DNA from: a virus
Lineage: Duplodnaviria > Caudoviricetes
Virus record (IMG/VR): IMGVR_UViG_3300036983_000059
Location: 1-56,440 of that record
Direction: 5' to 3' (one strand)
DNA: 56,440 nucleotides
The notes below the pieces were generated by a model, which was not told the origin of the DNA, did no database searches, and worked only from the letters and a program-made list of their open reading frames with translations. Positions 5,885-38,740 of this stretch are shown here, piece after piece. The first letter of the stretch is position 1, and each line of letters starts with the position of its first letter. A program made the translations under genes and the position numbers.

Positions 5885-6508
5885 ATGAACATAATAGAAG
5901 AAAAATACACATGGAAAGAAAGTTCAAAATTTGTAATTAGGCAAGAAACTAATTTTATTGTTGTGCATCATGCAGCTGCTATGTCGTGTACAGCTCAAGA
6001 TATTCATGGCTGGCATAGGCAAAAGGGTTGGACTGGCATAGGCTATCACTTTTTTGTAAATAAAAAAGGTGAAATATATAGAGGAAGGCCAGTTGAGGTA
6101 GAAGGCTCACACACTCTAGGCTTCAATAGCCAATCGATTGGAGTTTGTTTTGAAGGAAATTTTGAGCAAGAAGTAATGGATAGCAAAGAGCAAATAGCCT
6201 CAGGAGTGGAGTTAATTCAAAGCTTATTTAACCAATATAAAAAAGTTAGAGTCATTAGCCATAAAGGGTTAACCTCTACAGATTGCCCAGGAAAGAATTT
6301 TGATATATCTATTTTAGGTGTAATTAAAAAAGTTTCATTTAGATATAAAGATGATGAAAAAATTTCTGATTGGGCTAAAGAAGCAATTTATAAGTTGAAA
6401 GAAAAAGGCATAATGATTGGTGATGAAGAAGGGAATTTTAATCCAAAAGATATCATAACTAGAGAAGAGGTTGCAAAAGTTATTGCAAAATTGATAAATT
6501 TAATATAA
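5885..6508 (+). CDS. Endolysin: N-acetylmuramoyl-L-alanine amidase (Amidase_2) plus SLH domain
   Basis: IVVHHAA, GWTGIGYHF, IYRGRP, SIGVCFEGNF, SHK, DCPGKNF. C-terminal SDWAKEAI...GIMIG...FNPKDIITREE is an SLH motif. Confidence 0.93.
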   Translation: MNIIEEKYTWKESSKFVIRQETNFIVVHHAAAMSCTAQDIHGWHRQKGWTGIGYHFFVNKKGEIYRGRPVEVEGSHTLGFNSQSIGVCFEGNFEQEVMDSKEQIASGVELIQSLFNQYKKVRVISHKGLTSTDCPGKNFDISILGVIKKVSFRYKDDEKISDWAKEAIYKLKEKGIMIGDEEGNFNPKDIITREEVAKVIAKLINLI

Positions 6509-12336: not shown

Positions 12337-13239
12337 ATGATAAAAGTAGAAACATTTGCTGAAGTGTATGAAAAAATGAGGCCATTGTTATTAAATGCTG
12401 ATGAAGTTTCTCCTAGAGGAATGAAAACGAAAGAAATTTTAAATGGTTCATTTTGCATAACTAACCCGAGAAGTAGATTAGTGTATCATAAAGATAGAAA
12501 GTTTAATTTAATTTATGCAATAGCAGAGTCGTTATTATTGTTTGACTCTAGCAATGAAGTAAAATATTATTCTTTCTTTAATCAAAAAATGTATGATTTT
12601 TCAGATGATGGGAAAACATTAAATGGCTGTTATGGCAAAAGAGTTAATCACTTGATTAGTAGATTTGTTGATAAGTTAAAAAATGATAAAGATACTCGTC
12701 AAGCAATTTTAACAATATATTGTAATGATTTCAAAAGTAAAACAAAAGATACTCCATGCACGTTAAACTTGCATTGTATGATTAGAAATAATAAGTTAAA
12801 TTTACATGTATATATGAGATCAAACGATTTTATATGGGGAACTCAATATGATGTATTTAATTTTACAATGTTTCAAGAAGTAATTGCAAATGAACTTGGA
12901 ATTGATGTTGGCGAATATTATCACACAGCAAGTTCATTACACGTTTATGAGCAACACTTTGAAATGTTAGAAAATATTGAAAAAGTAGAACAAATAGATT
13001 TTGTAAATCCATGCAAAATATATGAAATGAGATCAGCAGCGTTATTAATGAAAATGAAAATTGATGGAATTGTTGGAGCAACTATTGAGCATAGAAATAA
13101 GTTTGTTAGAATGATAACAAATGAGATGAGATATAAAAAGAAACAAACGGTAAAAGAGTTAGAAAATGATTTAATGTTTGCAAAAAACTTTGTCAAAAGA
13201 TGGTACAAGGATGGAGATGAAAAAAATGTCATTTTGTAA
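12337..13239 (+). CDS. Thymidylate-synthase-fold enzyme, dCMP hydroxymethylase type
   Basis: DTRQA, catalytic TPCT, MRSNDFIWGTQYD, SLHVYE. Asp stands at the base-specificity position where ThyA has Asn. Confidence 0.8.
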   Translation: MIKVETFAEVYEKMRPLLLNADEVSPRGMKTKEILNGSFCITNPRSRLVYHKDRKFNLIYAIAESLLLFDSSNEVKYYSFFNQKMYDFSDDGKTLNGCYGKRVNHLISRFVDKLKNDKDTRQAILTIYCNDFKSKTKDTPCTLNLHCMIRNNKLNLHVYMRSNDFIWGTQYDVFNFTMFQEVIANELGIDVGEYYHTASSLHVYEQHFEMLENIEKVEQIDFVNPCKIYEMRSAALLMKMKIDGIVGATIEHRNKFVRMITNEMRYKKKQTVKELENDLMFAKNFVKRWYKDGDEKNVIL

Positions 13240-15853
13240 TAATCATCGGCATGATCAATACTCTACTTTTGACGGATTTGGAACGCCAAAGAATGCTGCT
13301 AAGTATGCTAAAGAATTAGGTCAAACTGCTCTTGGAATTGCAAATCATGGGAATGTTAATGGAATAATAGATCATTACTTCGCTTGCAAGGAAGTGGGAA
13401 TAAAGCCAATACTTGGCGTTGAAGCATATTTTCAACCAAAGTTTGATAAAGAAAAGAAAAATAGTCACTTATGCCTATACGCTCAAAACAAAATAGGTTA
13501 TTCCAATATTATGAAAATAATTTCGAAAGCCAATGAATGTAATTTTTATAGATATCCAGTTGTAGATTTTGATCTCTTAGAGCAACACAATGAAGGAGTA
13601 ATAGCAACTTCTGCTTGTGTTGCTGGATATATTCCAAGATTATTGGAAGCAAAAAAATTTGATGTTGCAGAAAAAGCTCTTATTAAATTTAAAACTATTT
13701 TTAAGAATAGATTCTTTTTAGAAGTAATGTCAATAGAAATAACAGATGATGGACTTCAAAAAAGATCTAATGAAGCAATAATTAAATTAGGCAAAAAGCA
13801 TAAAGTGCCTATAATTTTAACTTGTGATAGTCATTTTATAGAGAAAGATGATTATGATAGCTATTTAATAATGCATGCAATTGGTAATAAAACTCCTTAT
13901 GGAGATTATTCAAAAAAGTATATGCCTTCTGAAAAAGAAGTTTTATCACAGTTTAAACAAATGCATGGTTATTCAGGTCAAGAATTTGCTGACAACACGC
14001 AAAAGATAGCAGATATGTGTGAAGATGATTATTTACATTTTGATGAGATGATCACAAAGCTTGATTGGGGAAAACCATCTAAAGAAAAACTAAAAGAATT
14101 AGCAGTTAAAAGTTTAAAAAAGCAAAATAAATTTAGTGATGTTTACAAAGCTAGATTAAAGAAAGAACTAGAAACAATATTTGGGCTTGGATTTGAAGAT
14201 TATTTTTTATTATGCTATGACATTATAAAATTTGCAATTGATTCAAATATAGCAATTGGAAAAGGCAGAGGCTCAGTGTGTGGAAGTCTATTAGCATATT
14301 CATTAGGATTAACTGATGTTGATCCAATAATATTAGGAACAATGTTTGAAAGATTTTTAAGGCCTGATAAAAAGAAAATGCCTGATATTGATATGGACTT
14401 TGGTCAAGATAGACGTGGAGAAGTAATTGAATATGTAATGAATAAACACAAAGGGAAAGCAGCACAAATAGCAACATTTGGGTATTATAAAGTAAAAAAT
14501 TTAGCAAATGATTTAGCAAAAGTATTCAAAATGGAAAAACAAGAGATTGTATTATTTAAACACATCTTAGAGTTAAAAGTAGGAGAAAAAGAATCAGTAG
14601 ATTTTAATTATTTAATAAAAGACATAAACTTAAAGACATTAAACTCAAAATACAAAAACATAGTGAAGCATTTTTCTAAATTATATGGTCAAATTCGCTT
14701 CATAGGAAAGCATGCAGCTGGTGTAGCAATAACAGTTGATGACATAACAAATTACACAGCAGTTATAAGATCTTCTGGAGGATTTCAAACAGCCTTTGAT
14801 TTAAATTGCTTAGGCAAAATAAATGTTTTAAAAATGGATATATTAGGATTAACCACAGCTTCAGCCATACATGAAGCAGAACAAATGGCTGGAACAGAGT
14901 TTTCATATGATATGTTAGAAGATGAAGAGCTTTTAGAAGAGTTTAGAAATGGCAATACAAATGGAATTTTTCAGTTTGAAAAAGAATCCGCAAAAGATAT
15001 TTTAAGAAAAATAAATGTTGAAACAATACAAGACGTAATTTCAGCAAGTGCATTAAATAGACCCGCTCCAATTCAATTAGGTGTATTAGATAAATTTATA
15101 GATGCAAAAATAAATGGAAATATAGACAAGAAAGCTGCTTGGTATAAATATACTAAAGATACTTATGGAACTATAATATACCAAGAACATGTAATGAAAA
15201 TTTGCAGAGGGTTAGCAAAAATGGAATGGAATGACGTTGATAAAATAATGAAAAATTTAAGAACAGGAAATGAAGAAGGAATTGATCCTCTTGAAATAAA
15301 ATTTATTGAAGGAGCTAAAGAACATTCAGGAATGTCAAGGAAAGAAGCAAAAAAATTATATGAGTCAATGACATTATATTTGTTTAATAAAGGGCATGGG
15401 GCTGGCTATGGTTTATTATCTTTTTATCAAATGCATTTAAAACATTATCACCCTTTAGAGTTTTGGTATGCAATGTTAAAATTTGAAAGTGATGATATAA
15501 AACGAGATATTTATAAGAGTTGTGCAGTTCAAGGAGGAGTTGTTTTGTTATTGCCTCATGTTAATGGTAAAGCAGAATATTCAATTTCAAAGCTGCAAGG
15601 AGATGAAGTTGTTCAAGAGGGGTTGTCTTCAATAAAAAATGTAGGATTAAAATCTGCTAAAGAAATAGAAAGACTTGGTCCGTTCAAAGACAAAGCAGAC
15701 TTTTTAGCAAAAGTTCCGAAAAGAGCAGCAAACTCAAGAGTTGTACAAGCGTTAGAAGATGCAGGAGCCCTAGAGTTTGATAGAAAAAGATTTTTAAACA
15801 GAACAATAAGATGGAACTCGTCTTTAAACAATAGACAAATCAAAGTTTGGTAA
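13226..15853 (+). CDS. dnaE: DNA polymerase III alpha subunit (DnaE-like)
   Basis: PHP domain (HRHDQYSTFDG, IKPILGVEAY, DSHF); GRGS..GSL; FERFL; MPDIDMDF; KMDILGL; IFQFE; IIYQE; FNKGH. Confidence 0.95.
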   Translation: MSFCNNHRHDQYSTFDGFGTPKNAAKYAKELGQTALGIANHGNVNGIIDHYFACKEVGIKPILGVEAYFQPKFDKEKKNSHLCLYAQNKIGYSNIMKIISKANECNFYRYPVVDFDLLEQHNEGVIATSACVAGYIPRLLEAKKFDVAEKALIKFKTIFKNRFFLEVMSIEITDDGLQKRSNEAIIKLGKKHKVPIILTCDSHFIEKDDYDSYLIMHAIGNKTPYGDYSKKYMPSEKEVLSQFKQMHGYSGQEFADNTQKIADMCEDDYLHFDEMITKLDWGKPSKEKLKELAVKSLKKQNKFSDVYKARLKKELETIFGLGFEDYFLLCYDIIKFAIDSNIAIGKGRGSVCGSLLAYSLGLTDVDPIILGTMFERFLRPDKKKMPDIDMDFGQDRRGEVIEYVMNKHKGKAAQIATFGYYKVKNLANDLAKVFKMEKQEIVLFKHILELKVGEKESVDFNYLIKDINLKTLNSKYKNIVKHFSKLYGQIRFIGKHAAGVAITVDDITNYTAVIRSSGGFQTAFDLNCLGKINVLKMDILGLTTASAIHEAEQMAGTEFSYDMLEDEELLEEFRNGNTNGIFQFEKESAKDILRKINVETIQDVISASALNRPAPIQLGVLDKFIDAKINGNIDKKAAWYKYTKDTYGTIIYQEHVMKICRGLAKMEWNDVDKIMKNLRTGNEEGIDPLEIKFIEGAKEHSGMSRKEAKKLYESMTLYLFNKGHGAGYGLLSFYQMHLKHYHPLEFWYAMLKFESDDIKRDIYKSCAVQGGVVLLLPHVNGKAEYSISKLQGDEVVQEGLSSIKNVGLKSAKEIERLGPFKDKADFLAKVPKRAANSRVVQALEDAGALEFDRKRFLNRTIRWNSSLNNRQIKVW

Positions 15854-18994: not shown

Positions 18995-19354
18995 ATGAAA
19001 TTAAAGATTGTAGGAACATGTGAAGGAGTAGCAATAAAAAAGAATGGGCTTTCAACTATTAAGTTTAAAAGCTCAATTTTAGAATTAGCAGACTGCATAA
19101 AAACTTTACAAACAATTCAGCACGAAGTAGTAATTGGAGTTAAGTATAAAGATGAAGATGATAAAGAAATATCAATTAAGATTGGCAAAATGATGTTTGA
19201 TAATTTAGCTATAGACAAGCACGGGGAATGTGTATTAAGATTTTTGTCAGATGAGAATTCGCATGATTTTTCTAGAATAAATGAAATTTGCGAAAAAGAA
19301 ATTGATATTTATATAATTGATAAACTAATAAAAGAAGAAGGCCAAAGCGATTAA
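18995..19354 (+). CDS. Hypothetical protein
   Basis: AAGGAG RBS before ATG 18995. Confidence 0.6.
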   Translation: MKLKIVGTCEGVAIKKNGLSTIKFKSSILELADCIKTLQTIQHEVVIGVKYKDEDDKEISIKIGKMMFDNLAIDKHGECVLRFLSDENSHDFSRINEICEKEIDIYIIDKLIKEEGQSD

Positions 19355-19363
19355 GGAGAAATT

Positions 19364-19636
19364 ATGGGTAAATTTTTAGAGTTAGAAAAAGTAAAAATAG
19401 AAGATAACAAGAATTTAGTTTTCAGTGTAACAGATGAAGGAAAAATTTCGATAGCCCAACAATTGGTAGTAAAAGATGGAAATAGAGAAATGAATTTGTT
19501 TTTAAAAAATTCAGTAGTTGTTGACATTAATAGGCTTAGCGATATTTATAAAGCAATTGAAAATGTTATAAATAAACTTAGCGACAATAACAATGTTATG
19601 CGAGAGGCTCCAGGTGAATCTAGATTTAAAAAATAA
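19364..19636 (+). CDS. Hypothetical protein
   Basis: AAGGAG RBS. Confidence 0.6.
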   Translation: MGKFLELEKVKIEDNKNLVFSVTDEGKISIAQQLVVKDGNREMNLFLKNSVVVDINRLSDIYKAIENVINKLSDNNNVMREAPGESRFKK

Positions 19637-19708
19637 ACAAAAACAATATAATGATAAGGCTTTTAACTAAATGTAAGATATAAGCCTTTTAAAGGCAAAG
19701 TAGGCAGC

Positions 19709-19769
19709 TAAAAAATATTTTAATTATTTTATAAAAAGTTGTTTACTTTTCCTGCATTTAGGATATAAT
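19709..19769 (+). promoter_or_regulatory. sigmaA-like promoter
   Basis: TTTACT 19742-19747, TATAAT 19764-19769, AT-rich upstream block. Confidence 0.7.
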
Positions 19770-19820
19770 AGGATTATAGAAAAAAACAACTCGAAAACAA
19801 TAAGTTAAGGAGAAAACAAA

Positions 19821-20006
19821 ATGAAAAAATTATTTAAAGTAGAATTGGGCATGTGGGTAGAAATTAAATTAGATTTTAATTGGATTTTAGGAAATATAGT
19901 TGATATTTCAAAAGACGGAAAAACATTGCATATTGAAACGCATGAAGATACTTACAAAATAAACAGACTTACAGAAGCAGAAATAATAAGAAAAGTAGAA
20001 ATGTAA
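19821..20006 (+). CDS. Small hypothetical protein
   Basis: AAGGAG RBS; downstream of a promoter. Confidence 0.55.
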   Translation: MKKLFKVELGMWVEIKLDFNWILGNIVDISKDGKTLHIETHEDTYKINRLTEAEIIRKVEM

Positions 20007-20101
20007 TTGCTTAAAATTTAGGGTTGTGAAATTGAATCACATTAAATTGAATTGAAAGGACTCATTCAAGCCTTAACTATAATGTAAAATAATCAATTTT
20101 T

Positions 20102-20216
20102 TCTGAATTTATCTTAATGGTTAGATGCCTTGTATGCATTGAGTTTTTAAATTTAACCTAATTACGTTAAATGTAATGTATGCATGGCCGTATAGGTTCG
20201 AATCCTATAATTCAGA
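20102..20216 (+). ncRNA. tRNA-like RNA 1 with an extended hairpin replacing the anticodon arm
   Basis: Acceptor TCTGAATT/AATTCAGA; D-arm TCT-TAATGGTT-AGA; T-arm ATAGG-TTCGAAT-CCTAT; about 62-nt paired arm at 20127-20188. Confidence 0.75.
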
Positions 20217-20252
20217 AATAAAATATATTAAAAATAAAAAGGAGAAAATTAA

Positions 20253-20747
20253 ATGGCGAAAAATTGGTTACCAAAAGAAGCTTTTAAAGCGATCAAAGAA
20301 AACGACAAAGAAGGAATTAATGATTTTGCAAGAAGATTTCCAAATGCAGCAATTGCAATAGCAACACAAAATATTGAAGCAGTTTTAAATGCTCTTCCTG
20401 ATTACATGACATTGAGGAAGCTAGAATCAACTTTAAAAGGTGATATTGAAAATGTTGAAGAAGATTCAGAAGAAGAAGTTGCAGAAGAAAAGCCTGCTAA
20501 AAAAGAAGTAAAAAAGGAAGAGCCAAAGAAGGCTGTTAAAAAAGAAGAAATTAAACCATCAAAGAAAAAAGTAGTAGTTGAAGAAGAAGACGAAGATGAG
20601 GACGAGGACGAAGATTTTGATGATGAAGATGAGGACAAAGAAGAGGAAGAAGTAAAGCCTGCTAAGAAAAAAGTTAAAAAAGAAGAGCCAAAAAAACCAC
20701 TAAAGAAAGCAAAAAAAGTTGAAGATGATGATTTAGATGATTTTTAA
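20253..20747 (+). CDS. Hypothetical protein with a blocky acidic/Lys-rich disordered C-terminus
   Basis: AAGGAG RBS; repeated KKEEPKK and poly-D/E blocks. Confidence 0.7.
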   Translation: MAKNWLPKEAFKAIKENDKEGINDFARRFPNAAIAIATQNIEAVLNALPDYMTLRKLESTLKGDIENVEEDSEEEVAEEKPAKKEVKKEEPKKAVKKEEIKPSKKKVVVEEEDEDEDEDEDFDDEDEDKEEEEVKPAKKKVKKEEPKKPLKKAKKVEDDDLDDF

Positions 20748-20784
20748 TCTCTGAAAATAAAAGAGATTACAACATAAGATGATA

Positions 20785-20820
20785 AAAAAAAGCGCAGATA
20801 AAATTTCTGTGCTTTTTTTA
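20785..20820 (+). terminator. Rho-independent terminator
   Basis: AAAAAAGCGCAGA...TCTGTGCTTTTTT. Confidence 0.8.
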
Positions 20821-20889
20821 TTTATAAAAATATTTAAAAAAGTTTTCAAAAACATGTTTACTTTTGCTCAAGAAAGTGTATAATAATAT
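20821..20889 (+). promoter_or_regulatory. sigmaA-like promoter cassette, copy 2
   Basis: TTTACT 20857-20862 and TATAAT 20879-20884; spacer TTTGCTCAAGAAAGTG is identical to copies 1 and 3. Confidence 0.85.
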
Positions 20890-20924
20890 TAGGAAGTAAA
20901 AAAAAACGTTGGAGGAAATAAAAA

Positions 20925-21161
20925 ATGAGCATTAAAATAAACAACATGATAATTAATTCGTCATCATCAAAGCATATTACGTTTACTTATCCAGGATTTG
21001 AAAACATGATTGATTATAACAGCAAAATGGTAACACCTGATTTAAACATGGCTATATACAGAGATTTGGAGCAATTTGGAATACACAGCAACAACGTAAA
21101 AGAAATAAGCTTCAATAATCATTATAAATATATGATTGCAATACTGGAGGGGGAGCAATGA
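20925..21161 (+). CDS. Hypothetical protein
   Basis: GGAGG RBS after promoter copy 2. Confidence 0.55.
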   Translation: MSIKINNMIINSSSSKHITFTYPGFENMIDYNSKMVTPDLNMAIYRDLEQFGIHSNNVKEISFNNHYKYMIAILEGEQ

Positions 21162-21736
21162 AAAAAATATTTTTATTTATTGCATTAATTATATTTTTTT
21201 ATATTCCAAAAGTAGTTATAGCGGAAGAATTAATTAATTCTATTCAGAACGAAGTATATAAAGAACAAAATTTTAAAAAGTTTTTATTGCCAGCAAAAGA
21301 AATAGAATCGGATAATGAAGAAATAATAAAAATAAGTAAGTTTATAACAGAAGGATTAAAAACAGATAAAGAAAAATTTAAAGCAATTTATATTTGGGTG
21401 ATAAGCAATATATCTTATGATTTCGATAAATATAAAAATATTATTAATAAAAATTACTCAGATGAGTATGGAGCTTTAGTTACATTAAAATCAAAGAAAG
21501 GCGTTTGTTATGATTTTTCTGCCTTAATAGCAGCGTTGTCTAGAGCAGAAAATATACCAGCAAAATTATCAATGGGTTATAGTGAAAATGTATTTGGTTA
21601 CCATGCTTGGGTTGAATTTTATGATATAAATAAAAAAGAATGGAAAGTTTACGACCCAGCAAATGATTCATTTAAAAGTAATAAAAAAGCAAAAGCAAGA
21701 AATAAAAACGAATATAGAGAAACATCAAATTTATAA
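21158..21736 (+). CDS. Secreted or membrane-anchored transglutaminase-like cysteine protease
   Basis: Signal peptide; AIYIWV..NISYD; triad GVCYDFS / YHAWVE / VYDP. Confidence 0.85.
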   Translation: MKKIFLFIALIIFFYIPKVVIAEELINSIQNEVYKEQNFKKFLLPAKEIESDNEEIIKISKFITEGLKTDKEKFKAIYIWVISNISYDFDKYKNIINKNYSDEYGALVTLKSKKGVCYDFSALIAALSRAENIPAKLSMGYSENVFGYHAWVEFYDINKKEWKVYDPANDSFKSNKKAKARNKNEYRETSNL

Positions 21737-21747
21737 GGAGGCAAGAT

Positions 21748-22197
21748 ATGGGTGTGCTGCTTGATTTTAACAAATGGAATATTTATTTAGATAGCCATCA
21801 AAATTTTGTAACAGCTACAGTGTTAACAATAGGGCTTATAATATTTCTAATTACGTTTATAAGCTTGGAAACAGATAATTCTGCTGATGATATGAATTTT
21901 TTTATTAAGTGCGGAATATCAATATTTATTTCTATGGTGTTAACTGCTGTTATGATGGTATTATTAGTATTTATGCCTGTTTTTATAATATTATTATTCT
22001 TATTAATATCTGCATTTATAATATCTATTATAATTAAGCATGTTGGTGATAGAAAAGCTAAAACAAGAGATTCGCAGATAGAGGCAGATATAGATTATAT
22101 AACTAATAAAGTTTATGCAGAGTTGTCAAAACGTTCACCGCAATTAGATGTGAATGTAATAAGAGCTCAAGTATCAAAAACGCTTAAGAAAAATTAA
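21748..22197 (+). CDS. Membrane protein (about 3 TM helices)
   Basis: Long hydrophobic segments; AAGGAGG RBS. Confidence 0.65.
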   Translation: MGVLLDFNKWNIYLDSHQNFVTATVLTIGLIIFLITFISLETDNSADDMNFFIKCGISIFISMVLTAVMMVLLVFMPVFIILLFLLISAFIISIIIKHVGDRKAKTRDSQIEADIDYITNKVYAELSKRSPQLDVNVIRAQVSKTLKKN

Positions 22198-22214
22198 TTG
22201 TAAGGAGAAAAAAT

Positions 22215-23216
22215 ATGAATGCAAAATTAGATTTGAACAATATACCAAAATTAGTTGGTGAGAAGCCAAAAGAGAAATTAGAGGAATGCTTCAAGTTGAT
22301 TGACAATACAAGGTATCCGCTTTACTTCGTAGGACCTTCGGGATCTGGCAAATCAATAATGGCTATGAATTTAGCAAAGAAATACTCAGAAGAAAAAAGC
22401 GTGCCAGCATATTATGTTCAATTAAGCCCTGAGCAAACTAAAACAAGTTTAATTTTAGGGTTAAGATTAATAGATGGAAGTTTGAAAGCTCATAAAGGTG
22501 TTGTAGCTGAGTGTATGGAGAATGGTGGAATAATAGTAATAGACGAAGCAACGCATACAACACAAGAAATGCTATTGATGTTTAATTCAATTTTAGACAG
22601 AACTTCAATAACATCCATCGGCGATGAAATAGTTTATGCAAAAGAAAGCTTTAGGATTATTTTTTGTAGCAATGATAGTTCATATGCCGGAAATATTAGG
22701 TTGCCACAATCGTTTGCACAACGATTAGTTACATTTTATTTTGATTATCCAACTTTTGAGGATGAATGTAAAATAGTTAACAGAATTGCTAAAGATGAGT
22801 GTAATATAGATTTTAAGATGAGTGCAAACATAATAAAATATGTTACTAGTTTGCTAAGAGATTTAAGAACGAAAGATTTTCCATTATCAGCAAGAAACGG
22901 CTCTATAGCTACAATAAGATTAGCTTTAGCAACTAAAAAGGAAGTTAATAAACCCGATCCTTACTTTACAGTGAATAGCAACGTTGAATCAATAAGAAAA
23001 AAGATAGCAATTAGAATCTTTAATAATGTTGATAATATTGGAATTGCTCAAATAGCCTCAAAAGAAGTTAATGCATTTATAGATTATATTTCTTCGGTTG
23101 GCATTCAAGAGTTCAAAGATATAATATTTAGTTCGTTCATGTATTTTTTAGACGTGGATGGAAGTGAATTAATGAATGATAAAATAAAAAATAACATACA
23201 AAGTTCTATAATTTAA
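22215..23216 (+). CDS. MoxR/CbbQ-like AAA+ ATPase
   Basis: GPSGSGKS Walker A; IVIDEA Walker B; FRIIFCSN; LPQSFAQR. Confidence 0.88.
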   Translation: MNAKLDLNNIPKLVGEKPKEKLEECFKLIDNTRYPLYFVGPSGSGKSIMAMNLAKKYSEEKSVPAYYVQLSPEQTKTSLILGLRLIDGSLKAHKGVVAECMENGGIIVIDEATHTTQEMLLMFNSILDRTSITSIGDEIVYAKESFRIIFCSNDSSYAGNIRLPQSFAQRLVTFYFDYPTFEDECKIVNRIAKDECNIDFKMSANIIKYVTSLLRDLRTKDFPLSARNGSIATIRLALATKKEVNKPDPYFTVNSNVESIRKKIAIRIFNNVDNIGIAQIASKEVNAFIDYISSVGIQEFKDIIFSSFMYFLDVDGSELMNDKIKNNIQSSII

Positions 23217-36653: not shown

Positions 36654-36774
36654 TATGTGGTGGTGGAATAAGTAGACACTTGGCATAGGCATAAGAATGC
36701 TTCGAAGCGTAATAAAAATGTTAGAACTGCCTAAATCCTGCATTCATGTAAGGTGCGAATCCTTGCCCACATAA
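36654..36774 (+). ncRNA. tRNA-like RNA 2 with an extended structure replacing the anticodon arm
   Basis: Acceptor TATGTGG/CCACATA; Leu-like D-arm TGGTGGAATAAGTAGACAC; T-arm GTAAGG-TGCGAAT-CCTTGC; 68-nt insert containing TAGGCA/TGCCTA. Confidence 0.7.
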
Positions 36775-36807
36775 CGAAATAATATTAAGTGAAAAGGGGG
36801 AAAAACA

Positions 36808-36984
36808 ATGTCATATAGTATTTTTAGTCAATGCTCACTTTGTGATAAAAAGAGCGATTGCACAGATTTAAAAGAAATTGAAAAAGCAGTAATAGCAATT
36901 CATTTCAAAGGTTTTGAAGATGGCCATAAAGGTGGTGGAGTAATAAATTTGCATTGTGTAAGACAATCAAGCAGTGCAAATTAA
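36808..36984 (+). CDS. Small Cys/His-rich protein (missed by the ORF track)
   Basis: AAGGGGG RBS; MSYSIFSQCSLCDKKSDCTDLKEIEKAVIAIHFKGFEDGHKGGGVINLHCVRQSSAN; TAATG overlap with the radical SAM gene. Confidence 0.65.
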   Translation: MSYSIFSQCSLCDKKSDCTDLKEIEKAVIAIHFKGFEDGHKGGGVINLHCVRQSSSAN

Positions 36985-37955
36985 TGAAAAATGTAGTAAT
37001 TGAAATTACAAACAAGTGCAATTTAAATTGTAAGCATTGCGGCTCAACAAAAAATAATGACGAATTAAGCGTTGAAGCAATTAAGACATTATTGAGTGAT
37101 TTAAACGAAGTAAAGCATATTTCAATTACAGGTGGTGAGCCAACCCTCCACAAAGATATAGTTGAAATAGTTAAATTATGCTCAGCCAAATGCAATACAA
37201 GTATAATCACAAATGCAACATGCAGTGAAAAATTATTAAGGGAAATTATAGATGCAGGTATTGACTTAATTTCTTTTAGTGTTGATGGACTCCCAAAGAC
37301 TCATGATGAAATCAGAAATAAAAAAGTAAGTATTAATATGTTTAGATTAATAAATGTTGCTAAGTGGTATGTAGAGATTTCTGCAGTGACGACGGTAACT
37401 AAGCAAAATATAAATGAATTAAGAGAAATTCGAAGTTGGTTATTTGAAAATGGTTTTGATAGGTGGCAACTTCAATTAGGAATTCCTTATGGTAACATGA
37501 CAAAAGAAAACATGATAGAGCCAAAGCAAATAATTGACATAATAAAAGTTGCTCATGAAACTCAAAGTTTAATTGTAGATTTAGCTGATTGTGTTGGCTA
37601 CTATAGCAAGCTAGAGCATGAAGTTAGAACGAAGAACAATTGTGCTTGGAGTGGATGTCAAGCAGGTAAATCTGTTTTAGGAATATTAGCAAATGGTGAT
37701 GTTGTTGGTTGCACTTCAATAAGGGATAAAAATTTTATTGAAGGGAATATTTATAATGAATCAATTAAAGATATATGGCAAAACAAGTTTAATGCATTAA
37801 GAAATTTATGCCAAGCAGATTTATCTGGTAAATGCAAAAATTGTAAATACACAATGTGTTTAGGAGGTTGTCACAGCATGAAAATAGCCCTCAATAATTC
37901 TTTATATAGTGAAAATAATTATTGTATGTATAACTTGGCTAGAACGGAGGGTTAG
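36984..37955 (+). CDS. Radical SAM enzyme with SPASM domain
   Basis: CNLNCKHC; ITGGEP; FSVDG...HDEIR; SPASM CQAG...GDVVGC...GNI...CKNC....CLGGC. Confidence 0.92.
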   Translation: MKNVVIEITNKCNLNCKHCGSTKNNDELSVEAIKTLLSDLNEVKHISITGGEPTLHKDIVEIVKLCSAKCNTSIITNATCSEKLLREIIDAGIDLISFSVDGLPKTHDEIRNKKVSINMFRLINVAKWYVEISAVTTVTKQNINELREIRSWLFENGFDRWQLQLGIPYGNMTKENMIEPKQIIDIIKVAHETQSLIVDLADCVGYYSKLEHEVRTKNNCAWSGCQAGKSVLGILANGDVVGCTSIRDKNFIEGNIYNESIKDIWQNKFNALRNLCQADLSGKCKNCKYTMCLGGCHSMKIALNNSLYSENNYCMYNLARTEG

Positions 37956-37957
37956 AG

Positions 37958-38740
37958 GTGAAAGAACTTGAAGTGTTAAAAGAACTCCTAGATTTTATAG
38001 GTATTAAAGAAGCGATAGAAATGCTTAAGAAAGAAGGTGGAAAACCAAAATGGGGAAGTGGTGGTTCTAGTGGAGGAGGCGGAGGATCAGGAAGCGAAGA
38101 GCCAAAACAGTTAGAGGTTAGCGAAGTTGAAGAACAAGTAAATAATTTTTATAATAAATTAGATAGTGAAGAATTGGAAACTCTAAAAGAATATATAGAT
38201 TCTGAAAACTCATTTGTAATCAATGACATGCTTAATTCTGGAGTTTATAATGAAATAAAAAATAATACTTATGGAATAGTAGACGATCTCGAAGCCAGAA
38301 ACTTTAAGAACATAGATAATCTATCAAGTATTATTGATAAAGCGGATGCAATTCCTCGTGATATTAAAGTGTTTCGGTATTCTGATGAAAAATTCATTTA
38401 TGCAGTTAGCAAATCTTTTGGAGATAAGGATTTTTCCAATAATGTTTTGAAAGCAATAAAAGATAAAGATCATGTTGAAATGGCAAAATTAATGAACTCA
38501 AAAGGTGCGTCTAGCTTTACTAATAAATCGTTTGTAAGTACAAGCTTTAATAAAAAGAAAAATGAATTTACTGATAGAAAAGTATTAATTGAATTAAGTG
38601 TAAAAAAAGGTCAAAAAGCTTTAATAACAAATAATTTTAAAGAGTCTGAAATATTGTTTGACAAAGGGACAAAAATGAATATAAGCGGTTACAAAATGGA
38701 TGGTGAAAAAATGATAGTGAAAGTTGAGGTAACCCAATGA
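37958..38740 (+). CDS. ADP-ribosyltransferase (VIP2/C3-like, R-S-E clade) with helical and Gly-rich leader
   Basis: L.EY...IN..L; IKVFR; FVSTS; IELSVKKG.KA; KESEILF.KGTK. Confidence 0.85.
   Translation: MKELEVLKELLDFIGIKEAIEMLKKEGGKPKWGSGGSSGGGGGSGSEEPKQLEVSEVEEQVNNFYNKLDSEELETLKEYIDSENSFVINDMLNSGVYNEIKNNTYGIVDDLEARNFKNIDNLSSIIDKADAIPRDIKVFRYSDEKFIYAVSKSFGDKDFSNNVLKAIKDKDHVEMAKLMNSKGASSFTNKSFVSTSFNKKKNEFTDRKVLIELSVKKGQKALITNNFKESEILFDKGTKMNISGYKMDGEKMIVKVEVTQ

Follow-up and report, generated by a model that had tools for sequence, protein, structure and literature searches.

What might a phage do with an RNA that has the shape of a transfer RNA (tRNA), lacks an anticodon arm, and lies between two genes? 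The question is raised by positions 20102–20217 of IMGVR_UViG_3300036983_000059, a whole IMG/VR viral record of 56,440 bp that is estimated to be 66% complete (hereafter, the window). At this locus, an element with the acceptor stem, D arm, and T arm of a tRNA, and with a 62-nt rod in place of the anticodon arm, separates a 61-aa open reading frame (ORF) from a gene for a 164-aa protein that starts with MAKNW. We put at about even the chance that the element is a cis-acting processing signal, similar to the ‘t-elements’ of plant mitochondria, that is cut by the host RNase P and RNase Z and does the job performed by self-cleaving ribozymes in related phages. The parts of the element are as follows:

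20102..20217, + strand: the tRNA-shaped element from end to end, with its discriminator A at 20216 or 20217 according to register; matched by the Rfam tRNA model RF00005, with a cloverleaf as the minimum free energy (MFE) structure
20102..20109, + strand: 5′ strand of the acceptor stem (TCTGAAT or CTGAATT), from sequence and fold; an RNase P cut is predicted just upstream
20111..20126, + strand: D arm, ATCT / TAATGGTT / AGAT, with the equivalents of G18-G19, from sequence and fold
20127..20188, + strand: 62-nt rod replacing the anticodon arm, with the 8-nt loop CUAAUUAC, from sequence, MFE structure, and context fold
20191..20209, + strand: T arm, TATAGG / TTCGAAT / CCTATA, from sequence and fold
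20209..20216, + strand: the acceptor stem's 3′ strand, not followed by CCA, from sequence; an RNase Z cut after the discriminator is predicted from the rules described for Bacillus subtilis in passages of PMC1874595

Read in order, the element consists of TCTGAAT, UU, the D arm, G, the rod, CG, the T arm, ATTCAGA, and A. The acceptor stem pairs TCTGAAT (20102–20108) with ATTCAGA (20210–20216) through seven standard pairs out of seven, or, in an alternative register, CTGAATT with AATTCAG (20103–20109/20209–20215). The D stem ATCT/AGAT (20111–20114/20123–20126) has four of four positions paired and closes a loop, TAATGGTT, that contains GG, while the T stem has six of six positions paired below a loop of full consensus, making up a canonical GGTTCGAATCC T arm. 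Thus, all stems outside the rod are fully paired in a region of only 26–29% GC. The rod begins with a lower stem of 15 positions and 14 pairs (3 bp, a U-U mismatch, and 11 bp, with three G-U pairs in all), which is extended by a 9-nt/1-nt internal loop, a 7-bp helix (ATTTAAC/GTTAAAT), and the 8-nt apical loop. The discriminator is followed by AAT; hence, CCA is not encoded. Folded alone, the 115 nt adopt precisely this cloverleaf at minimum free energy (−29.3 kcal/mol; z = −4.04; 0 of 200 shuffled sequences as stable), and it is kept when folded in a 264-nt context. A sequence-only reading of this DNA had listed the acceptor stem, the GG D-loop, the perfect T arm, the 15-position stem with its ATTTAAC/GTTAAAT cap, and the lack of CCA, all of which are present; the U8-A9 linker it also named is found in the register that weakens the D stem and gives way to U8-U9 in the register with a perfect D stem.

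The D-arm/rod junction (20120–20139) and the 3′ strand of the rod (20166–20185) form a 20-nt direct repeat, 80% identical, which hints that the rod may have arisen by local duplication. An origin of the rod as a mobile repeat was considered and rejected: the window holds no second copy of the rod, and the word TGTATGCAT is not enriched there (24 matches versus 25.3 expected).

RF00005 matches the element at 20103–20216 with 32.5 bits, above the gathering threshold of 29, and with E-values of 4e-4 in a 4-kb search with laxer filters and 1.4e-6 in a search of the whole record, where it is the sole match to this model. Aligned to the model are the acceptor, D, and T parts, the middle being taken as an insertion. 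The element is therefore formally matched by a known Rfam family, an outcome that the sequence-only reading had counted against itself; yet only those three parts are matched, which argues against an ordinary tRNA or one that has simply decayed. Other searches passed it by. A default-filter Rfam scan of the whole window returned nothing at gathering level for any family, and ARAGORN called neither a tRNA nor a transfer-messenger RNA (a tRNA-like domain with a tag reading frame) in the window, with or without intron mode. Similar elements will thus slip past annotators who rely on ARAGORN and on Rfam scans with default filters.

The inability of this tRNA-shaped RNA to decode, already proposed by the sequence-only reading, is supported by several observations. 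An anticodon stem of 5 bp under a 7-nt loop (U33, purine 37) is absent, the rod standing in its place. We also examined every single contiguous deletion in 20127–20191 for a product with at least four of five stem pairs, Y32, U33, and R37; no candidate with a canonical anticodon arm was found, compared to a mean of 0.9–1.3 in shuffled sequences. Among the Rfam matches at E ≤ 10 in 19000–23000, only the tRNA model overlaps the element, with no group I or group II intron core. Group I introns need more than 62 nt, and the earlier statement that the insert is too short for a self-splicing intron agrees with the lack of an intron match. Along the same lines, the natural tRNAs covered in passages of a review have anticodon stems of 5–6 bp (PMC7609411).

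The evidence that bears most directly on function comes from related phages, which were retrieved through an AAA ATPase (three loci) and RecA (80 loci). The nearest relatives are syntenic in this region, with ATPase identities of 54–61%. Ahead of the homologous downstream gene, loci L006 and L008 carry a Twister-P5 ribozyme (RF02684; 50.8 and 54 bits versus a cut-off of 37.6), the two copies showing compensatory changes relative to each other, and L003 and L005 carry a Hammerhead_II ribozyme (RF02276; 40.8 and 44.6 bits versus a cut-off of 37). L007 carries the L006 sequence, Twister-P5 included. The distance from the end of the module to the start codon is similar throughout, at 34–49 nt in these five relatives:

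L003: Hammerhead II, 34 nt
L005: Hammerhead II, 35 nt
L006: Twister-P5, 41 nt
L008: Twister-P5, 49 nt
Window: tRNA-like element, 36 nt

The positional equivalence with ribozymes is an observation, as are the structure of the element and its gene context. By contrast with the downstream gene, the small ORFs upstream of the module are mutually unrelated, and the 61-aa ORF of the window is not homologous to those of L006 and L008; thus, the RNA module travels with the downstream gene. No Twister-P5 or Hammerhead_II was found in the whole record at E ≤ 1, and no tRNA match was found at E ≤ 0.01 in L003, L005, L006, L007, or L008 (two of these five records being at least 95% complete), so the module types substitute for one another and do not co-occur. 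In a RecA tree of 82 rows, which left out L005 because this locus lacks RecA, the window, L003, L006, L007, and L008 form one clade with a Shimodaira–Hasegawa-like approximate likelihood ratio test (SH-aLRT) support of 100, and the other 77 rows form its sister group, also with a support of 100. All four sisters of the window in this tree, plus L005, have a ribozyme in the slot of the element.

How could a tRNA-shaped RNA do the work of a ribozyme? A twister, a hammerhead, and a tRNA-shaped RNA all end in the same kind of event, a break of the RNA chain at a specific site. We infer that the two cistrons are transcribed as one unit, that the host enzymes cleave it, and that the downstream gene benefits, in a reaction that can be rationalized as follows. 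(i) Folding: the nascent RNA would adopt an L-shape, with the acceptor/T-arm stack and the D-loop/T-loop elbow intact. (ii) Cleavage: host RNase P would cut the 5′ edge, near 20102/20103, and host RNase Z would cut just past the discriminator, near 20216/20217, as CCA is not encoded. (iii) Separation: the cuts would part the 61-aa cistron from the 164-aa MAKNW cistron, leaving the latter with a new 5′ end 36 nt before its start codon. By removing the anticodon, the rod would bar the product from decoding, and it may also stabilize the fold. The relatives would meet the same need with a ribozyme or a dedicated promoter.

The element has the features expected of a substrate, namely, an elbow, an acceptor/T stack, and no encoded CCA, and it lacks those that the ribosome requires. 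Passages of PMC4919913 describe RNase P as docking on the stack of T arm and acceptor and taking its measure at the elbow instead of the anticodon arm, and as already processing tRNA-like substrates that are not tRNAs, such as MALAT1 and MEN-beta. For B. subtilis, passages of PMC1874595 describe RNase Z as an endonuclease that cleaves CCA-less precursors 3′ of the discriminator and is blocked by CCA, and RNase P as acting first where the 5′ leader is long and as able to cleave precursors that lack CCA. According to a review (PMC6765202, section 13), a role in processing polycistronic transcripts has been suggested for the self-cleaving ribozymes of bacteria, and the purpose of most of those in bacteria and phages still awaits definition. 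The sequence-only reading had offered three roles for the element, as a decoy for tRNA-sensing defenses, as a stabilized carrier for an aptamer, or as an RNase P/RNase Z processing signal; only the last gained ground, through the synteny with the ribozymes of sister phages, and the observations neither back nor exclude the other two. A broader proposal, which we rate a little short of even, is that these phages treat twister, hammerhead, and a rod-bearing tRNA mimic as interchangeable ‘RNA scissors’ cassettes at one gene junction, the mimic outsourcing its cut to host RNase P and RNase Z.

The plant-mitochondrial t-element is the closest described analogue. Passages of Forner et al. 2007 (PMC1920247) present t-elements as tRNA-like structures by the 5′ or 3′ ends of mRNAs and propose that they direct, in cis, endonucleolytic cuts by RNase P and/or RNase Z. 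Both they and the phage element have a non-decoding, tRNA-like fold next to a cistron boundary, the embedding of the phage element in an mRNA precursor being presumed; in contrast, as far as those passages go, t-elements belong to plant organelles in which mRNA ends were mapped experimentally, whereas the phage element has a rod for an anticodon arm and is known from its sequence. A canonical tRNA (RF00005) shares with the element the acceptor stem, the D arm with GG, the GGTTCGAATCC T arm, and a score above the cut-off, and differs in having an anticodon stem-loop and an anticodon, whose lack leaves the element without an ARAGORN call. In MALAT1 mascRNA and the MEN-beta module, which, unlike the phage element, reside in the mammalian nucleus and define a 3′ end of a long non-coding RNA (lncRNA), RNase Z is recruited too, and the ends of the flanking RNA are created. 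Like the phage element in our interpretation, each is a tRNA-shaped module in a longer transcript, with no sequence relationship implied, and both are listed as RNase P substrates in passages of PMC4919913.

The Twister-P5 and Hammerhead II ribozymes of the sister phages are alike in slot, downstream gene, and distance to the start codon, with a presumed break of the transcript, yet they are unrelated in sequence and fold and cut themselves, whereas the tRNA mimic would need host enzymes. YrlA RNA is circularly permuted, its acceptor end closed by a loop and its termini lying in the long stem, whereas in the phage element the acceptor stem carries the open termini and it is the rod that is closed. 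What the two share is a non-decoding, tRNA-like elbow joined to a long helix, and RNAs of the Y RNA/YrlA kind also occur in phages, according to passages of PMC4201824. Neither the whole-window Rfam scan nor the 4-kb search gave a Y RNA match at the element.

The gene neighborhood fits a two-gene unit composed, in order, of a promoter, the 61-aa ORF, the element, the 164-aa ORF, and a terminator, whose co-transcription is suggested by the following features and by the absence of a predicted terminator between the ORFs at 19821–20006 and 20253–20747:

19742..19769, + strand: promoter-like site TTTACT-N16-TATAAT, from a consensus scan (10/12 matches); putative start of the two-gene transcript
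19821..20006, + strand: upstream cistron, 61-aa ORF, from the ORF list; no PHROG match
20217..20252, + strand: A/U-rich leader of 36 nt with the Shine–Dalgarno sequence AAGGAG at 20239–20244, from the sequence
20253..20747, + strand: downstream cistron, 164-aa protein starting with MAKNW, from the ORF list and family searches
20785..20819, + strand: hairpin resembling a terminator, with runs of A and of U (inverted repeat I6; 93% complementarity) and partial alignments to terminator-type Rfam models
20857..20884, + strand: next promoter-like site, from the consensus scan

At the position equivalent to 19742–19769, the relatives have TTTACA-N17-TATAAT. The MAKNW protein is built by a conserved N-terminal domain of ~70 aa and an acidic/basic low-complexity tail, and has no Pfam or PHROG match. 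Just before the predicted RNase P site, 20090–20101 is complementary at 11 of 12 positions to codons 3–6 of the downstream ORF (20259–20270), and the two segments are paired in the 264-nt MFE fold; by eye, this complementarity was not seen in L006 or L008. Such pairing could keep the start region hidden up to the RNase P cut. In broader terms, the phage contig has a GC content of 26–38%, with nearly all long ORFs on the plus strand, and encodes a DnaE-type polymerase, RecA, an SNF2-family helicase, a portal protein, and a tail tape measure protein, as well as Holliday-junction resolvases, a primase, and a thymidylate synthase. An endolysin with Amidase_2 and SLH domains (5885–6508) suggests a Firmicute host.

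To place the junction in a wider context, we took a census of the family to which the downstream gene belongs, in 45 viral contigs besides the window. A hidden Markov model of the N-terminal domain retrieved 15 earlier loci, and a pattern search combined with tblastn retrieved 39 loci, nine of which belong to contigs counted before. For 40 of the 45 contigs (L003, L005, L006, L008, and 36 further loci), Rfam was searched in E-value mode; the L007 record was searched with three families only, and L021, L024, L028, and L058 were read by eye, as were three contigs from metagenome-assembled genomes that were found later. An above-threshold ribozyme lies directly upstream of the gene in five of the 45 contigs, representing three distinct sequences, and L110 has a sub-threshold hammerhead-like core (24.3 bits; E = 0.006 in a 271-nt search). 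A tRNA or tRNA-like element directly upstream of the gene was seen in none of the 45 contigs, by a custom scanner or, for those it was applied to, by Rfam; the tRNAs of the more distant relatives L041, L045, and L049 are not adjacent to a gene of the MAKNW family. Many of the census contigs have a promoter of the TTTACA-N17-TATAAT type immediately upstream of the gene. With either a ribozyme or a promoter in that place, the gene usually gets its own 5′ end, one way or another.

Two further kinds of leader were seen upstream of homologs in the census. In distant homologs (L033, 15750–15988; L158/L159, 1240–1500), a strong promoter is followed by a leader of ~190 nt that is conserved between L033 and L159 and is possibly structured; L087, which is the L033 contig, gave no Rfam match. 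In L082 and L109, a GC-rich, hairpin-forming stretch (GCTGCCGGCTCC ... GGAGCCGGCATC), also with no Rfam match, is found ~100–200 nt upstream of the gene homolog and could be a further structured module at the junction.

Several points weigh against interpreting the element as a processing signal. It is an orphan in the viral and metagenome contigs searched, and the case rests on one phage. A look-up of sequencing runs containing 19000–22000 listed no RNA run and one DNA run, possibly the source. A pattern of the D-loop and T-loop separated by a 45–75-nt gap found one viral locus (L002) and 21 metagenome loci in these contigs, none of them a homolog and most being a chance D-loop-like word upstream of a normal tRNA. 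Similarly, an exact pattern of 21 nt from the 3′ part had no match in viral contigs, and blastn-short and nhmmer against 85 related loci returned only the window itself. Having no homolog to align, the element offers neither covariation nor proof of selection, also for the G-U-rich pairing that the sequence-only reading took to suggest selection on RNA structure. The structure is also imperfect: the acceptor and T stems stack over 13 bp (7+6 or 8+5) compared to the canonical 12, linker 8–9 is ambiguous between the registers described above, and the leader and trailer are complementary at 12 of 13 positions (20097–20109 with 20209–20221), a pairing that could make the acceptor helix longer and obstruct the two enzymes. 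A weak TTGAAA-N19-TATAAT was noticed by eye at 20053–20083, its spacer lying outside the 16–18 nt considered by the scan; if active, this site could make the element a 5′ leader and not an intercistronic spacer.

The comparison with ribozymes has its own weaknesses. Long branches in the RecA clade may join falsely, although gene order and ATPase identity agree with the grouping. In addition, ribozymes turn over quickly: a 425-aa gene, 96–100% identical among four contigs, follows Twister-P5 in two of them and unrelated sequence in the other two. Where ribozymes are so easily gained and lost, a shared insertion hot spot could mimic functional equivalence. Self-cleaving ribozymes leave a 5′-OH and a 2′,3′-cyclic phosphate, whereas RNase P and RNase Z leave a 5′-phosphate and a 3′-OH; because the end chemistries differ, the equivalence fails if the 5′-OH is what matters. 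The turnover sites are located ~60–160 nt upstream of the 425-aa gene in L161–L164 (gene start at 1501 in L161–L163 and 1167 in L164) and at ~1500–1568 in L129, and one phage that lacks a twister before this gene has a twister before a different gene instead. The same 425-aa gene is preceded by a second twister in L005, and its relatives are found in near-identical contigs only.

Four other explanations compete with a processing signal. The element might act in trans, as a released RNA of ~114 nt, possibly with CCA added, that decoys a host factor recognizing the elbow or the acceptor end, such as a tRNA-targeting defense nuclease or a modification enzyme. This role is compatible with processing, as RNase P and RNase Z would still be required for release; it would make sense of a stable structure with intact elbow and acceptor stem, of the only tRNA-like RNA in a phage clade otherwise devoid of tRNAs, and of a rod that would exclude the RNA from translation. 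However, anticodon nucleases, the best-known tRNA-directed defenses, would have nothing to cut in an RNA lacking an anticodon loop, no defense or anti-defense gene was recognized among the neighbors of the element, and the sister phages have at this site ribozymes, which cannot be tRNA decoys, in place of tRNA mimics. We consider a decoy rather unlikely. Nor is the element likely to be a functionless relic, that is, a tRNA captured from a host or from another phage, which then lost its anticodon arm to a duplication or insertion. Against a relic, the acceptor, D, and T stems are fully paired in such AT-rich DNA, and the T loop is of full consensus; moreover, the new rod is itself a stable helix, the element is placed precisely at the ribozyme position ahead of the same gene, and the clade has no tRNA set to decay from. 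In favor of a relic are the absence of homologs, hence of evidence for conservation, the 20-nt direct repeat with its hint of local duplication, and the fast turnover of intergenic modules in these phages.

The rod could also be the functional part, for example, as a double-stranded site for RNase III, with an incidental tRNA-like frame. Intercistronic RNase III sites are found in the early mRNA of phage T7, and the rod does place an interrupted helix of ~22 bp between two cistrons. This explanation is improbable, as it does not account for the exact T-loop consensus, the GG D-loop, the 7-bp acceptor stem, and the above-threshold tRNA score. Finally, a decoding tRNA, either spliced to a normal form or reading with its 8-nt apical loop, has in its favor that metagenomic arrays hold tRNAs with 32–48-nt inserts that ARAGORN treats as introns (L133, L144, L151, L152, and L002) and that, by eye, CUAAUUAC fits Y-U-NNNN-R-N. 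An intron-containing tRNA was nonetheless rejected, given the empty intron-mode and single-deletion results and the lack of an intron-family match, and the loop lies more than 22 bp away from the D stem, compared to the 5–6 bp of known anticodon stems in passages of PMC7609411. We give a decoding tRNA almost no credence.

Other tRNA-like candidates were noted during these searches. At 36655–36775 (+) of the window, ‘mimic 2’ combines a 7-bp acceptor-type stem (TATGTGG/CCACATA) with a 6-bp T-type stem and the loop TGCGAAT, with no GG D-loop. It has no RF00005 match at E ≤ 10 and folds no better than shuffled sequences (z = 0.12), and as a tRNA-like element it is unconfirmed. The 487-aa protein encoded upstream has no homolog in four relatives, and the radical-SAM neighbor has five distant partial matches only. 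Downstream of mimic 2, a 58-aa Cys-containing ORF (36808–36984), a radical SAM/SPASM enzyme (36954–37955), and an ORF of the ADP-ribosyltransferase family (37958–38740) look like a cassette of the type that makes ribosomally synthesized and post-translationally modified peptides. In L002, an unrelated AT-rich phage contig, a T arm and an acceptor 3′ strand are followed, after ~32 nt, by the complementary acceptor 5′ strand and a D arm (~13190–13330, +), the layout of a circularly permuted tRNA-like RNA of the YrlA/Y-RNA kind, with no ARAGORN or Rfam call. The tRNA genes with 32–48-nt hairpin inserts in or beside the anticodon arm are located at L133 2040–2146 (−), L151 3879–3982 (−), L144 1797–1919 (−), L152 1561–1679 (+), and L002 7154–7283 (+); several are part of dense tRNA arrays, and ARAGORN calls them in intron mode only. 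In L133 and L151, a Trp-type anticodon sequence (UCA and CCA, respectively) is kept and paired into a long rod.

It is already known that tRNA-like processing signals exist in organelles and mammalian nuclei and that ribozymes occur near phage genes. In the passages that a full-text search of the literature brought up, there is no description of a tRNA mimic replacing self-cleaving ribozymes at an orthologous phage locus or of a phage tRNA-shaped RNA with a rod as its anticodon arm. The locus amounts to a natural substitution experiment, whose three modules are alike in being able to get the RNA severed there, and the whole unit is compact (~1.1 kb) and readily testable. If the processing-signal interpretation is correct, it would add bacteriophages to the organelles and mammalian lncRNAs in which tRNA-like processing signals are known. 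If the proposal of interchangeable cassettes holds, it would define a phage class of t-elements, and the swap would be direct comparative evidence that the twister and hammerhead ribozymes of phages and bacteria simply sever polycistronic transcripts at defined points.

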